Source: Ginglymostoma cirratum (taxonomy: Eukaryota). From it: a DNA stretch of 64,000 nt. Numbering within the stretch: position 1 is the first letter of the stretch; each line of letters begins with the position of its first letter. The stretch lies in assembly GCA_024137785.1 (NCBI GenBank), contig JAHRHZ010000271.1, forward strand, positions 21,431,130-21,495,129. The letters are read 5' to 3'. The position numbers and the translations under genes are program-made. Shown here piece by piece: positions 1 to 62,621 of the stretch. A model generated the notes under the pieces. That model saw only the letters and a program-made list of their open reading frames with translations. It was not told where the DNA came from and made no database searches.

Positions 1-514
1 TGAATTGTTTTCTGATTGAAAGATGATTGAAAATATGATTTATTTTCTGCCTTAACATTATGAATTTTAGTCCTTTAGTTTCATTCTATCTAAAGCAGCA
101 TATGTTACTGCTGATTGTTCTAGAGCAATGGGACTACAGGGGACATAGGCTGTTATTTTTGGTAATCCACACCTTCAGGATTCAACTGCCATTTTCTTGG
201 TACTTTCCTAGGTCACCGTTATCACTCTCTTTTCAAATTTCCACGCCTCCATCTTCCACTCCTATTCCACTGAAATTCTCCCTCGGAGCCAACTTTTACT
301 TCGGTACTCATTTCATTTTGACTTACCCCATCATTGTCTAACCAACATAGAAAACTTAATCTTGGAAATTAAGGTACTGGTTGCACTAGAATCCAATTTC
401 AGGTAAACAGGATGAGTGGGACGAGTATGCATCACTTCCAAGTTTTACTGTTTTTATTCCTTTTTGCTTAGCTCTGCACTTAGGTAAATAAGAATAACTC
501 TTATAACATGTTCC

Positions 515-14749: not shown

Positions 14750-14940
14750 GATTGGAATGGAAATCTCGTCAGAGAGAGAAACAGAACTTCTTCAAGGTGA
14801 ACAGTTCTGAGGAAGGGTCACTGGACACAAAACATTAACTCTGTCTTTTCCTCCACAGATGTTGCCAGACTTGCTGAGCTTTTCCAGCAACTTTATTTTT
14901 GTTCCTGATTCACAGCATCCACAGTTCTTCTGGTTTTTAT
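14750..14940 (+). mobile_element. Penelope pLTR-derived short element with mutated hammerhead core
   Basis: CTGAGGAAGGGTCACTGGACACAAAAC followed by 'cacagatgttgccagacttgctgagcttttccagca'. Confidence 0.75.
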
Positions 14941-18275: not shown

Positions 18276-19456
18276 TTGACTTTCTGATAGTGAAGTAGTT
18301 CACACCATGTCAGCAATATATCAAACTGCACGCTTAAATTGATCTGAGACAGTGACACACCTGGCAAATGATAATAAAGTCATTGGCCATACCAATACAG
18401 ACAACTGTTGACCTTGTGTGAATTTTCTGCTTAGTTACTGTCCCGTAACCAATACTTTTGACCATGATATAGCTCCTCTGTGACTAAAGAAGACTTTAAT
18501 ATAAGCCAGAAAGAGATAAAAGAAAAGAAGAAAAGCAAAATACTAACCATGAAGCTGAACATCACATGCCCACCTAATATTTTTCTTTTGGGTAGACACT
18601 GTCCAGTGTCTGTCTGAGTCTTTCAGCCCAAAAAGCTCTAAGGTAATTCACAGGTTTTGTGCAGAGATATGTAGAAGCAGGTGGAGATGTCAAGAAGGAC
18701 TCCTGCTCATGGGTTACACATGTTATCCCACATGGTTACTTTCTTCTCAACTTATTCATGAGCAGGCAAACTGCTAAATTGTAGTGGTAGACAAGCAGGA
18801 AGTTCTGTCCTCTGCCAAGACCTTAAAAGTCCCAGCTTCCTGATGCCATAGTGAAAATACACCCAGACAGCACTTCACTCTCTGCAAGCCAAAAACATCA
18901 CTCAGCCCCTGCTCACCGATCACATTCACCTCCAGAGAACTCAAGGATTAGGCAAAATGCAACACCACTATATTGTTCAGGACAAGGTCATATAGCTTGC
19001 CACAATCAACATTATCTGGTCCCTTTAGAATCCTAAAAACAACAATCATGTCATCTCACAACATTCTCTTTTCCTGTGAGAACATCTCCATTTACATAAC
19101 CAGTTCTAACTTCACCTATGATTACCCTCCATTATTTACTTTTGTTTAAAACCATGACCTCTCCATGAATAGCAAACTGTGAGTGGGATTCAGTTTGATT
19201 TTTACTAGCCACTTTCTTCAGTTACGCATTAGTGGAACAAAACAGCCCTCAAGGTACTCCATCTCTATCATCTATCCCTTTGATTAAGGGGTAACAAAAG
19301 CAAATTGTATAGTCTGCTGTTAGTAAATCTAGCCAATTCCAACGCTGTACATTCAAAATGCACTATTCCAAGCCAAACTTTGACAGGCATCATGAAGAAT
19401 AATTACTGTATTTACTTTAACATTTTGTTTCCGAAAGTAATAGCCAAATTCTTATC

Positions 19457-19593
19457 AGAGATAAAAGGTACTGCAGATGCTGGAGAATCCGAGATAACAA
19501 GGCGTGGGGCTGGATGAATACAGCAGGCCAAGCAGCATCATAGGAGCAGGAAAACTTGATGTTTCGGGCCTAGACCCTTCATCAGAAAATCAA
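19457..19593 (-). mobile_element. Short Penelope-derived retroelement with hammerhead ribozyme core and 15-bp TSD
   Basis: agccaaattcttatc at 19442-19456 and 19594-19608. Minus strand reads CTGATGA-A-GGGT-CTAG-GCCC-GAAAC-ATC at 19558-19585. Confidence 0.88.
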
Positions 19594-20129
19594 AGCCAAA
19601 TTCTTATCCTTGTTTCAAAGTCCTCACATCTAATCTCTCAATATATTGCCTAATACCTATTTAGTCTGTTAGTAATATCAATAGAAAATATCTCTGTCTG
19701 CAAATAAGTTAGAATGAGGAATTCTTAGCAAACAAAAACTAGTTGTTTTGTTGTGGACGTTGATCATTTTTCAATCTTTTGGCAAAGTTAAACCTTCTAT
19801 GCATGCAGAATTATGTTTTCAAAGAATCAAAGTAATAGAGTTTCTGTACAGTTGCATTATGTAATTTGCCCAAAATTGCCAAACCATATGTTAAAGATCT
19901 CAGAATTTCAGGTGTTATTTACATTCAGTGCAAATTGTGTCTCTATCTTCTGTTTCACAGTTTTAAAATAAATAACGTTGGAAGACAATCTTGCCCTACA
20001 AAACTGACCACAGCTCTCAACTGAATTGGTCACCTTGGCACCTTTCTGCAGAATTCATCAATAGGCATGTTTTATAAACTTATAATATATTAAATAAACC
20101 AACTGGTAGACCAGCTGTGACAGTCACTC

Positions 20130-32444: not shown

Positions 32445-32659
32445 CTGTAAAGCAAAACAATGCAAAGTATGATTAAAATACAAAGTTCTTACTCCTTTCT
32501 AATGATATCCTGCTGGGAATAGCTAGATCAAGAAAAACAGGTCAATGTCACTCCTTCCAAATCCTACACAACTACATTATTATACTTCACCGTCGTATTT
32601 GAATTCGGTCTTTCTTACTCGTGCCTTCATCTGACCCTAACTTGACAAAGTGTTCTAAC

Positions 32660-33720
32660 CTGTACTGAAAACAACAGGTGCTGGAGATCACAGAGGGTCA
32701 GGCTGCATCCATGGAGAGACAGCAAGCTAACGTTTCGAGTCGAGATGACTCTTCATCAGGGCTGAAGTGAAGTGTGGAGGGGGCAGCATTTATGCTATAG
32801 TTGGGAGGTGTGTGGTTGGATTGTAGATTGCTGGGGGAGAAGGGATGTTGATCGTTCAGGTTAAGTGATTGGAATGTGAGAATGCCAGAACAATGGTGTG
32901 TCTAATTGCCAGACTTAGAACATACAGTCCAACTGGGGTGCAGGCAGGGGAGAGAGGACATGGTGGTAGAGAGTGTAACAAGCTAAAAGAAAAGGAAGGA
33001 ATGGAAGTTGGTTCACAATTTGAAGGTGTTGAACACGATATTAAGTCCAGAAGGTTGTAAGTGCCCAGTTTGAAGATGAGATGTTGTTCCTCCAGTTTGC
33101 CCTGTGATTCACTGGAACACTGCAGTATGCCGAGGACAGACACTTGGGTATGCGAGCAGGATGCTGTGTTAAAATGACAAACTACGGGAAGTTCGGGGTC
33201 CTGCTTGCGTGCGGACTGGAGGTGTTGTACAAAGTGGTCACCAGTCCGTGTTTGGTTTCTCCAATGTAGAGTAGGCCACATTGGGTGCAGTGAATGCAAA
33301 ACACAAGATTGCAGTAGGTACAGATGAAATGCTGCTTCACCTGGAAAGACTGTTTAGGCCCTTGGCTGGAGAGAAGGGAGGAGGTGAAGGGTCAGATGTT
33401 GCAACTTCTGCGGTTAAATGGGAGGGTGCCGTGGGAAAGTGGAATGGTGTTATTGGTCGATGAATGGAGTAGAGTGTCCTGAAGGGATCTCTCCCAGCAC
33501 TCTACATTCCAACACCTCTCCATCCACCTGCACAACTACAGCATAAATGCTGCCTTCTCCACACTTCAGTTCAGCTGTAATGAAAAGTTATCTATACTCA
33601 AAACATTAGCTTGCTCTCTCTCAGTAGATGCTGCCTGACCCACTGTGATCTCCAGCATTTGTTTTCTTCAGTACAGATTCTGGCAACTACAGTAATTTGC
33701 TCCTATCTTCTTAACTGTGG
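32660..33720 (-). mobile_element. 5'-truncated Penelope-like element with GIY-YIG endonuclease remnant and inverted pLTRs
   Basis: 33050-33310 translates to the frameshifted pattern C..C.LLYIGET...GDHF..HL....KQDPELPVVCHFN...KLEEQHLIFKLGT. 32660-32850 and 33490-33705 are inverted copies of each other. Confidence 0.9.
32724..32764 (-). ncRNA. Minimal type I hammerhead ribozyme motif in the Penelope pLTR
   Basis: CAGCC-CTGATGA-A-GAGTC-ATCTC-GACTC-GAAAC-GTT-AGCTT: intact core, perfect 5-bp stem II, palindromic ACGT stem III. Confidence 0.75.
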
Positions 33721-34779
33721 TCATTATTGGAATAACATACACTTATTGTGATTTACTTTTTCAAGAACTTAAAAGCTGGTATATAAAGCTGTCCACAACT
33801 CTATTAGAGATCATAATTCAGAATTAGGACTCAAATCTAACAATACACACCAAAGATTTAATAATATTTTGTCTATCAGATACTTTGCTGCTTTCAATAA
33901 ATTCCCATAGCTATAGATGTTCAATTTTATTAGGTATTTATTCATTCTTTTCCAGCTAGTTGATGTAAAAATGTTATATAGATTTTGACTGTCAGAGATT
34001 TGCAGAAACAAACAGCATGAAGACTGTCACTTCGAAGAAACAGTGGCATTTGTTTGTTATTGACAAAAAATTTAAAAGATACTCTTAAAAGAATTAATTG
34101 AACTTTGTCTGCATGCTCAGCAATGCACATTTATATCAGACAATGTTAGATCAGCATATGTAAACTTTGGCTTATAGCTTTCATGTTTAAACTAAAAATA
34201 TAACAAAAGTATTGATGGAAGACTATTTTCTAACAACCACTTCTTAATAGCTCAAAGTGAAATGCTTTGCTACTTCTCTAAGACAGATAAAATTCCTCAT
34301 TCACATTGCAAATATCTACTCCTCTTAAATAACATTAGCCAATGTGAAAAGGTGTCATGCGATAAAAAGTTCATTTTGAATCATCAAAGCAATCTGTCTT
34401 CAGTTTAAACAGTTTAAGAACTGAAAACAGAAGTTGCACAGTTTTTTTTCAGTCATATACAAAGAATACAAGTAGATATAAGATATTCTTGGTTCCACAG
34501 TATTGGTTATAATTGGCATGTGACACACTTTATTTCTCTCTTTTAACCGACCCATTTTGTAAAATAAGAATCAATATAATAATAATCTAACCAGATATAC
34601 AAACACGTCACCTACATTAAGTCTAGTCCTACAAACTGAACAGTATCAGTTTTGTAAAATTGCCCCAGGAAAGTAGGGACAATTAAATGACTGACTAATG
34701 ACAGATTGATGACAGATTAATACAAAATCAAACAATCATTTCCACCATTACCAATGCACAAAAAGAGCAGAATGCATGA

Positions 34780-34920: not shown

Positions 34921-35164
34921 TTAGGGGTTTCATCACACATCAGTCTGGTTTGTCATTTCAGGATGGCCTTCCTCCCAGTATGTAGACTGTGAAGGGCTAT
35001 TCTTTGCATTTGATGTGGGGCAAAACTGGACTTTAAACATGGCAATGATGGAGCGAATCCTGGGCTGTCCTGGCATTAGTATGTACTTCTACTGATAATG
35101 TGCACATGATAGTGTGAGGGCCTCACTGTGCATACTTAATGAAGAAAAATGTGGCAAATCCTAT

Positions 35165-35201
35165 GATAACAAGGTGTAGAGCTGGATGAACACAGCAGGC
35201 C
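35165..35201 (-). mobile_element. Start of another copy of the 19457-19593 family, cut by the gap
   Basis: 'gataacaaggtgtagagctggatgaacacagcaggcc' matches 19493-19529. Confidence 0.8.
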
Positions 35202-35601
35202 NNNNNNNNNNNNNNNNNNNNNNNNNNNNNNNNNNNNNNNNNNNNNNNNNNNNNNNNNNNNNNNNNNNNNNNNNNNNNNNNNNNNNNNNNNNNNNNNNNN
35301 NNNNNNNNNNNNNNNNNNNNNNNNNNNNNNNNNNNNNNNNNNNNNNNNNNNNNNNNNNNNNNNNNNNNNNNNNNNNNNNNNNNNNNNNNNNNNNNNNNNN
35401 NNNNNNNNNNNNNNNNNNNNNNNNNNNNNNNNNNNNNNNNNNNNNNNNNNNNNNNNNNNNNNNNNNNNNNNNNNNNNNNNNNNNNNNNNNNNNNNNNNNN
35501 NNNNNNNNNNNNNNNNNNNNNNNNNNNNNNNNNNNNNNNNNNNNNNNNNNNNNNNNNNNNNNNNNNNNNNNNNNNNNNNNNNNNNNNNNNNNNNNNNNNN
35601 N
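35202..35601. other. Assembly gap (400 N)
   Basis: Run of N. Confidence 1.
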
Positions 35602-36964: not shown

Positions 36965-37350
36965 GTGGTTTAGCTCAGTTGGGGTTGGACAGCTGGTTGG
37001 TGATGCAGAATGCTACCAGCAGTGTGGTTTCAAGTCCTGCACAGGCTGAGGTTACCATGAAGGATTTATCTTCTCCTCAGGTTAAGCCACTACCATTCAC
37101 CTCTGGAAGGACACAGCAAGCCAGGCTGCAGCTGGGGGAAAGTCCTTCAGGACTGAAGAAAGGTAATACCTGAAAGGTTGACTGTTCCTTTCCTCCAGAT
37201 GCTGCCTGGCTTGCTGTGTTCTTCCAGCCTTCTGTTTGCCCACCTTGGATTCCAGCATCTGCAGTTTCTTTGTCTCTAACCATTTATCTCTCTCTCTCTT
37301 ATAAGCGAGCAGCCCTTTGGTCTAATAAGTCACTATGGTGAATTCCTTTA
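36965..37350 (+). mobile_element. tRNA-derived SINE interrupted by a Penelope-derived element
   Basis: Head 'gtggtttagctcagttgg...ggtttcaagtcc'. The body resumes after 37280 with 'tctctctc...gagcagccctttggtc...ctatggtga'. Confidence 0.6.
37098..37280 (+). mobile_element. Partly palindromic Penelope-derived element with hammerhead-like core
   Basis: CTGAAGA-A-AGGT-AAT-ACCT-GAAAG-GTT near 37153-37180. Left arm 'ctggaaggacacagcaagccaggctgcagctgg' is inverted relative to the right arm. accatt occurs on both flanks. Confidence 0.75.
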
Positions 37351-50240: not shown

Positions 50241-50693
50241 GCAGTTAACAGTTTGAACTTCTTCAATCTCACAATTTTATCATACTTGATATACAATGGT
50301 TAATCAGTTAATAAAACAAGAACTAAATCAAATTTATTGTAATATGCCTTAAAATATGGAGAATATAAACACAATGGAGTATATCTCAACGCTTAGATTT
50401 AAATATAATGAAATAGCATAATTATTACAGCACAGAAAGTGGACATTCAGCCCATTGTGCCTGTTACCTGACTTGCATAACTGAGAATTCAGTCAAGGAA
50501 TACAAGTATGAAGAGGTCACTGAGCCACACCTAGCATGTCACTTTGTGTAGCTGGCAGTACAGTGCTGTTTCTTGTTATGGTTTTCACTATCTATTATGA
50601 ATTAAGTGGAGAATTATAAATGACAAACAAGGACCATAGCATAATCAATTCTGTGCATGATATAAAAATGGACAATTTCAAGATATTGATGAT

Positions 50694-50774
50694 ACCTAGG
50701 TGTACAGCTGGATGAACACAGCAGGCCAAGCAGCATCAGAGGAGCAGGAAAGCTGGACCCTTCTTCAGAAAAAC
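50694..50774 (-). mobile_element. Internally deleted copy of the 19457-19593 family with 17-bp TSD
   Basis: ttcaagatattgatgat at 50677-50693 and 50775-50791. Retains CTGAAGAAGGGTC but lacks the GAAAC half. Confidence 0.85.
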
Positions 50775-51559
50775 TTCAAGATATTGATGATGTTTTAGGA
50801 AACAAGTAAGAGTCGTTTTGTCCAACAATCTGATCAATGATGGATTATGAATAAAAATCAATTTGAAATGAGTTATTCCAGATGGATTACACAACCTTTG
50901 CGATCTTTGTCTACCTTAGATCTGTACTATTAAAAAAAGTTAAATGTGACATAAATTACACAATTCTTTTGCAATATTTTATCAGTTCAGTAAATGCACA
51001 CACTGCAGATTTTGGCATAAATTCAAAGACATCTCAACGTGTTTATACCTTATAGGATTCTGCCATTGATAATTGAAAAGCAACAAGTAGGAGGCATTAT
51101 CAAAATAAAAGGCTCAACGTTGGGAACTATGTCAGTGTTGTGTTTGACTCTACGTCAAGTTAATTGCAATGATAATTCAATGGTAAATGTATTTGCAGGA
51201 CTTATTCTGACTGCAGTTAATTACAAGGATTGTGCATGTATATATTTCTATTCTCCTGGTGGTCTTGTTATTAACCTCTCAGAAACCCTACATGTATTCT
51301 CCAAACTTTGGGTTCAAACTTATTTTAATTGTCAAAACATCGCAGCTAAATTAAACCTTAATTCCACCCAGATATTAGCTACCTTTTAAAATAAAAAGGG
51401 ACTTCAAAATTGAAACTAATTTAAAGTGGAAGTGAAGATGCTTTCGCTTCATTATAAATTGCAATAAAATTATCAGGAAATTCTGAAACAAAAGTTTAGC
51501 TCGGTATTTATTTTTCATGGACAGATTGAATCAAAATTGATGATACAAAATGTAAAACT

Positions 51560-62240: not shown

Positions 62241-62621
62241 TGTGTAGTTGCAGAAGCTTGCTGTAGTAATGCAATGATCATGAGCACAATAGGAGAACTA
62301 TGTTTGGTGCTTTTCTGTGTTGTTAAACAATTAATTCACCAACAGTACTATTAAACAATACTATTAGACAGATGAATTACATAATTTATTTGCAAACTTT
62401 AATTTGGTGCTTTTCTGTTTCACTCATGTACTGGATATATCTAAAAAGAGAGAAAGAATGAGTGAGTAAATGATATATAGTAAGAAATATAAATCTCCCA
62501 TGGTCTGGTGGACCACAACATGTGCAGGTTTATCAGGCAGCAATGGACTGGATAGGCTTAGTTCCTTGAGAAATTACGTGCGTGTGCGACTGAATGCAAT
62601 GCAATAGGAAAGATGAATAAT

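Follow-up and report, generated by a model that had tools for sequence, protein, structure and literature searches.

The 137-bp insert described here is, as judged from its sequence, the pseudo-LTR (pLTR) of an abundant Neptune-type Penelope-like element (PLE), that is, a known kind of element and no separate SINE or retrozyme. We consider it likely that it arose as a run-off solo pLTR, which would have been made by an internal start of reverse transcriptase (RT) on the 5′ repeat of an uncleaved mRNA. The window is the 64,000-nucleotide stretch of Ginglymostoma cirratum DNA that was analyzed. The insert itself is ordinary, being one of well over 100,000 relics. Taken as a whole, the family offers a very extensive record of how PLEs are reverse transcribed, and it suggests the position of the RNA start, a mostly uncleaved hammerhead in the copied RNA and a reason for partial tandems. 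Window coordinates are collected in Table 1; positions within the element are counted from C3 of CUGAUGA (= 0), with the predicted cut between +27 and +28 and the end of the window insert at +128.

Table 1. The insert, its parts and its two relatives in the window
Feature	Position	Strand	Remarks
Target-site duplication, left copy	19442..19456	+	15 bp
Solo pLTR insert, Neptune-type PLE	19457..19593	-	
Optional PLE tail, about 35 nt	19457..19491	-	Tail end = putative second RT start site; cf. PMC11167929
pLTR segment from predicted cleavage site to tail-less 3′ end	19492..19554	-	3′ end = putative upstream RT start site
Minimal type-I hammerhead	19555..19588	-	CUGAUGA 19585-19579, bulged A, stem II 19577-19566, GAAA, C-A-U-C
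Details of the window hammerhead			A at 19560 through decay of G16.2; cleavage predicted after 19558; stem I UUU/AAG
5′ junction, T + TG + ATTTT	19586..19593	-	A (19590) = putative RNA +1
Target-site duplication, right copy	19594..19608	+	15 bp
Related tail-less arm	35157..35201	-	Runs into assembly gap (35202-35601)
Older tail-less solo pLTR	50694..50774	-	Internal deletion in hammerhead; same 5′ boundary

The insert and its parent element

The insert lay between exact 15-bp direct repeats at the coordinates reported in the preliminary description, and any exact repeat of such kind 50-300 bp apart appeared in 2 of 50 Markov-simulated windows versus three in the real window. Neither a poly(A) nor a tRNA-like head was visible on inspection by eye, again as described before. 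Of the two related copies previously noted at 35165 and 50694, the kinship held in a weaker form than described: in the first, the 400-N gap begins before the hammerhead, so that no hammerhead is visible, and the second, flanked by a 17-bp duplication (50677-50693 / 50775-50791), has no tail, and both GAAAC and the 3′ half of its stem II are missing. Gaps of 400 N were often located between the two arms of inverted insertions (L023, L027, L050/L051, L099/L100 and window 35202-35601), indicating that the assembly under-resolves such palindromes. The window also contained a distant pLTR-like relic with 74% identity to the insert (37198-37271, +) and a third exact 15-bp direct repeat, with 100 bp separating its copies (62303-62417).

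A 31-mer from the middle of the insert was matched exactly at 156,717 places of the 4.36-Gb genome, and the best 40 scored matches to the insert showed 96-100% identity. Eight of the 30 best fetched matches extended upstream into a common C-rich UTR, at least two of them reaching a GIY-YIG frame. Coding information came from locus L121, where an inverted arm of about 2.1 kb with the tail and a direct arm of about 2.1 kb without it lie between 14-bp duplications; here a YIDD RT frame is located upstream of GIY-YIG, with a C-x4-C-x2-C linker before the endonuclease (EN) and a CCHH set (CxxC and two His) inside it. The GIY-YIG match of L121 to Pfam was weak (E 9.3e-4, 19.9 bits, under the 22.6 cut-off), and the RT piece gave no Pfam match and no relevant PDB match. 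An intact full-length master was found neither in the three regions fetched for the search nor at L121 and L122, and all copies seen were broken.

A linker of the form CX2-5CxxC is given as a mark of Neptune or Nematis (PMC8557442; this and the other sources are cited for the portions available), and vertebrates are reported to carry Neptune and Poseidon (bioRxiv 10.64898/2026.07.22.740005). The linker and this vertebrate distribution together point to a parent element of the Neptune clade. Direct and inverted pLTRs, the optional tail and variable duplications were all present in the parent element, which works like other EN+ PLEs and shows the Neptune features that were tested: the same RT, CX2-5CxxC linker and C-terminal GIY-YIG, and likewise pLTRs in direct or inverted order, a tail of 30-40 nt that may be absent, and duplications of variable length (PMC8557442, PMC3846280). 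Duplications of 9-19 bp surrounded the insertions, and those inspected were, by eye, of mixed sequence and not microsatellite. From the tail, 1,003 exact copies continued into the 5′ body, in which the first in-frame ATG was seen after the tail, at about +166.

Over 129 nt, the only difference of the insert from L002 and from the body-linked L004 was a G to A change at +25, and the insert is therefore the pLTR of the same element. A Penelope origin, as previously proposed, is thus borne out by matches to body-linked copies with GIY-YIG and RT that are one CpG change away; mobilization by the Penelope RT/GIY-YIG protein is likewise supported, and the insert sequence could be recognized as the terminus of an autonomous Penelope, since body-linked arms reach the GIY-YIG and RT frames. 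The second option of the preliminary description, ultra-short Penelope insertions, came close to the answer. The other option, a distinct non-autonomous, retrozyme-like family, was not supported, as neither diagnostic changes versus body-linked copies nor tandem arrays were found.

The exact 5′ form of the insert occurred in 48 copies versus 15,923 body-linked ones. We considered TTGATTTT as the head of a subfamily and rejected it, because it had these 48 copies only, with unrelated flanks and frequent overlap with the duplication; the share of TTGATTTT among the best matches (10 of 30) reflects query bias.

The hammerhead

The minus-strand order of CUGAUGA (from 19585), A, GGGU(CUAG)GCCC, GAAAC and AUC was confirmed as claimed, and the features of the minimal hammerhead were present (CUGANGA, GAAA and UH boxes, a bulge before stem II, G10.1-C11.1). 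In a set of 14 hand-picked copies of related sequence from three families, helices I and II covaried, with 92% of 112 cells paired and two-sided changes in 5 of 8 pairs, a covariation score that was reached by none of 500 shuffles; the expected covariation of the core stems was accordingly seen. The supposed decay of GUC to AUC at a CpG was also corroborated, 95 aligned arms having G in 73, A in 21 and C in 1 at this position. As a consequence of the G to A change, the palindromic 15.2-16.2 (dimer helix III) is absent in the window copy, and it is present in the family majority (73/95). An Rfam search of the insert gave no match at E<=1. Folding of the whole insert was no better than that of shuffles (z -0.68), and neither this nor dimer co-folding gave hammerhead-specific support.

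The minimal hammerheads of metazoan PLEs (PMC4209133) share with the present one the lack of helix III, the bulged base before stem II, G10.1-C11.1, the palindromic 15.2-16.2 and the occurrence mostly as single motifs from truncated copies. Compared to them, stem II here is only 4 bp, helix I starts at the putative +1, and the window copy lacks G16.2. Helix I begins at A(-4) in all three families. L010, L198 and L323 showed a different family that also bears a hammerhead, in which stem II is long and the TATA-like box lies at about -47; L010 is an insertion of the insert's family (family A) adjoining a member of this other family.

Ribozyme cleavage as the main setter of ends was rejected, because few 5′ ends lay at the cleavage site: 4 of 167 arms ended at +26..30, one of which was the deleted copy of the window, mis-scored. 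These few ends indicate that most copied templates were uncleaved, and the insert, which keeps the whole hammerhead, was copied from uncleaved RNA. A smaller excess of 5′ ends was observed at +31..35 (13/167 arms), joints from -3/-4 to +32/33 were prominent in RNA-seq reads, and some templates, a minority, may have been cleaved. Among the go-back joints shown for the reads, none was at the cleavage site. The hammerhead in the stub is regarded as a passenger on this model, and the CpG change of the window also breaks the predicted dimer helix III palindrome.

Ends of the copies and the candidate RNA start

The ends were profiled on 200 arms anchored at +46..76 (202 were found in 648 kb, and two outside the family were left out); they came mostly from one contig, and inverted pairs counted twice, the arms being not fully independent. 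The 3′ ends fell on two sites 35 nt apart (88/199 at +89..98, 85/199 at +124 or beyond), and the interval between them is the known tail, which has been tied to two internal RT start sites (PMC11167929). The 5′ ends piled up at -8..0, where 54 of 167 uncensored arms ended (7.55%/nt; elsewhere 0.60 and 0.00%/nt at -9..-40 and 0.13-0.35%/nt at -41..-780). Of these 54 arms, 29 were joined to an inverted second arm, 22 to host DNA and 3 to a different part of the element; the 22 flank-joined ones had no upstream sequence in common. Genome-wide, the body-linked 8-mer was found on 15,923 of 33,451 exact cores, and with decay allowed for, the share of cores stopping at the boundary was estimated at 40-45%. 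The boundary was spread over -7..0 and sharpest at -5/-4/-3; as C(-5), retained in 27 of 48 A-terminated arms, was the commonest neighbour when C was allowed, we placed it at -5/-4. For want of an AG before the boundary, we rejected a splice junction there, and comparison of the 5′ junctions of the arms led us to reject divergence of the upstream sequence as an explanation of the pile-up. The preliminary description had taken non-random ends as the mark of a separate family; the ends are indeed non-random, with two 3′ sites and the 5′ pile-up, whereas the separate family does not follow, and the ends seem to reflect where RT starts and where the RNA of the autonomous element has its 5′ boundary.

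Solo pLTRs have also been noted in Adineta, without duplications, and ascribed to recombination or deletion (PMC3846280), whereas those observed here have duplications and a fixed 5′ end. Terminated arms made up roughly 40-50% of the arms reaching the core, and no microsatellite targeting was evident by eye. In the Poseidon element PAc of Anolis, the same two internal RT start sites bound the tail and cleavage is not needed for insertion (PMC11167929); there the first in-frame ATG is in the hammerhead, unlike here, and run-off stubs and junction repeats are not described in the available text.

In 420 nt of UTR, the single TATWWA match was located at -35, and the boundary base A(-4) lies within CCATTTC, which we take to be an initiator-like motif. 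In the divergent families B and C of the same genome, TATAAA or CATAAAT was located at -33 to -35, and position -4 was again A; most family B arms also stopped at CAGTT (43 arms, by eye). Both families are represented in the window: a family B stub with a decayed hammerhead (14803-14920, +, core at 14807) also begins with CAGTT just before the core, and an inverted pair of family C (about 32620-33750, cores at 32759 (-) and 33577 (+)) has the TATA-like CATAAAT at -35 in each arm and an endonuclease-like stretch (33016-33446, tblastx 45-56%) between the arms. Among junctions with two non-C letters (2,283), 65 of the first 100 listed had G before A(-4), with about 29% expected, an excess as expected from a copied cap or a partial repeat; the TG in the 5′ junction of the window insert is probably such a partial repeat or cap copy. 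From the TATA-like box about 30 nt upstream of the boundary and the initiator-like A, we infer a Pol II start at -5/-4.

Poly(A) RNA-seq, taken from two raw runs under the same species label, of which X18, with 27 reads, carried no information, showed a depth that stepped up about 2.5-fold at -3 and collapsed after the tail, with no pile-up of molecule starts and with equal reads in both directions. This depth mirrors passively transcribed copies and says nothing on the start site. Over the UTR at L128:1232-1600, the reads of run X17 showed A>G differences at 28 places, which may stem from variation among subfamilies or from the editing of inverted copies.

A pLTR with TATA and initiator is known from Adineta (PMC3846280). 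The Penelope of D. virilis has an internal TATA-less promoter, and the UTR of an upstream copy serves the downstream copy, so that, as with the tandem promoters of HeT-A, the start is supplied by the upstream copy's 3′ UTR as proposed here, whereas here the TATA-like box lies outside the copied region (PMC2377424). By analogy with D. virilis, an internal promoter may also exist within the stub.

These observations can be assembled into the following sequence of events. Pol II would start at A(-4) from a TATA/initiator promoter that lies in an upstream copy's 3′ UTR, so that the first four RNA bases would form helix I of the hammerhead. The GIY-YIG domain would nick both target strands about 15 nt apart, and RT would prime internally at +93 or +128; priming on the 3′ repeat would copy into the body and yield body-linked arms, and priming on the 5′ repeat would yield a run-off cDNA of 97 or 132 nt. 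Through microhomology, the cDNA end would then be joined to the target, which gives a solo insert as in the window; a join to a second cDNA would give an inverted pair, and one to the 5′ body a partial tandem. The 2.45-kb insert L243, in which both pLTRs begin at -5, would fit two such run-off rounds. Since the TATA-like box is not copied, stubs are likely inactive, or dead on arrival, and only partial tandems would regain the box and would therefore be needed.

On a longer RNA, an RT roadblock at -4 (the end of helix I, a U-run or the C-rich tract) would also give a PLE stub with this end, and we regard it as an unlikely origin of the boundary. In its favour, the end of helix I coincides exactly with -4 in three families, and read-through was seen in about half of the arms. 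Templates crossing the boundary also exist, as indicated by 5 of 30 read-through copies having the 3′ UTR, pLTR and 5′ body in one piece, so some of the pile-up could be due to a pause. However, a roadblock leaves unexplained both a TATA-like box at a fixed spacing of about 30 nt in three families with differing UTRs and the excess of G before A, and families B and C are without the U-run of family A, yet B stops at the same place.

Still less probable is a self-propagating, non-autonomous SINE-like or retrozyme family with a length of about 135 nt, for which the stubs would themselves be transcribed and then mobilized in trans. It would account for the fixed ends with duplications of 9-19 bp, for the 48 exact copies of the window 5′ form and for internally deleted pLTR-X-pLTR units, and secondary masters could pass on the four-T form described below. 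Nevertheless, the insert is a PLE pLTR over its whole length, one CpG difference from the body-linked L004, with no Rfam match and no promoter head of its own, and the 5′ letters of the stubs change from one copy to the next, frequently overlapping with the target duplication; in addition, RNA reaching well past the tail was required by the Anolis protein (PMC11167929), and the stub has no such RNA. Non-LTR retrozymes resemble the insert in being short and non-coding, with a type-I hammerhead, kinship to PLE pLTRs and long duplications, and are defined by tandem units of 150-450 bp giving circular RNA (PMC7229834, bioRxiv 10.64898/2026.07.22.740005), whereas the insert consists of one unit only, with ends that the cleavage site does not determine, and 200 arms included 9 close same-strand neighbour pairs with unequal spacers (9-323 nt) and no arrays. 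Ordinary random 5′ truncation is very improbable, because although ends upstream of -40 are sparse and evenly spread, their frequency at -8..0 exceeds this level 20- to 50-fold and the pile-up is also seen genome-wide and in family B.

Junction repeats

Repeats of the first 7-8 nt, ATTT(T)CTG, preceded the core at 307 junctions, with up to four extra units, compared to a rough chance expectation of about 9 (hexamer frequency 0.00072, 12,000 terminated arms assumed). Two or more extra units were present at 24 places, about 22 of them independent, and L308 had up to four full units; 23 of the 24 multi-unit arrays kept one T-run length in the matched units. The four-T form was found in 20 of 89 terminated arms versus 0 of 56 body-linked arms. 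The body-linked form of the repeat had no match genome-wide, and none of 30 fetched repeats was body-linked; later replication slippage was rejected as the source of the repeats on these 0 body-linked cases. The window junction, T-TG-ATTTT, is a two-letter case that alone proves nothing.

Pol theta-type templated insertion is an activity of host polymerases, and as an explanation of the junction repeats only, such a polymerase, or slipping second-strand priming on the cDNA end, falls just short of being probable. Some junctions (L047, L210) are patchworks of short pieces of the hammerhead 5′ side in both orientations, and a DNA template would explain one T-run length in 23 of 24 arrays without two RNA forms. 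On the other hand, the template reads AU-UU(U)CUG-AU, an A-B-A′ layout, every unit begins at the same boundary, and an RT at an exhausted template has cause to realign, a primer internal to the cDNA less so. RT working on RNA as the writer of the repeats is possible, and we advance it tentatively. With equal reserve, the sequences suggest that Penelope RT, telomerase's closest relative among eukaryotes, may add telomerase-style repeats in vivo by realigning at the mRNA 5′ end for at most four extra units, and that the same junctions may map an external TATA promoter.

Telomerase and DRT10 share the A-B-A′ template and the fixed 5′ boundary, and PLE RTs are described as the most TERT-like there (PMC12632851). 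Unlike in those systems, the repeats here are rare (1-4 extra units), have a 2-nt alignment region and occur at integration junctions, the writer enzyme being putative. If the repeats come from RT, a retrotransposon enzyme would have the realign-and-repeat step of telomerase; the repeats would then bear on telomerase origin, in a form testable in the existing in vitro PLE system, and the external TATA promoter would explain the need for partial tandems. No title or abstract on run-off pLTR stubs, or on a TATA box or junction repeat addition in PLEs, was found in literature coverage that leaves out most subscription journals.

At L124-L149, internally deleted pLTR-X-pLTR units had 5′-body breakpoints that clustered at +232..+285 in about 14 of 30 loci, which suggests a preferred template-jump landing zone or an RNA end.
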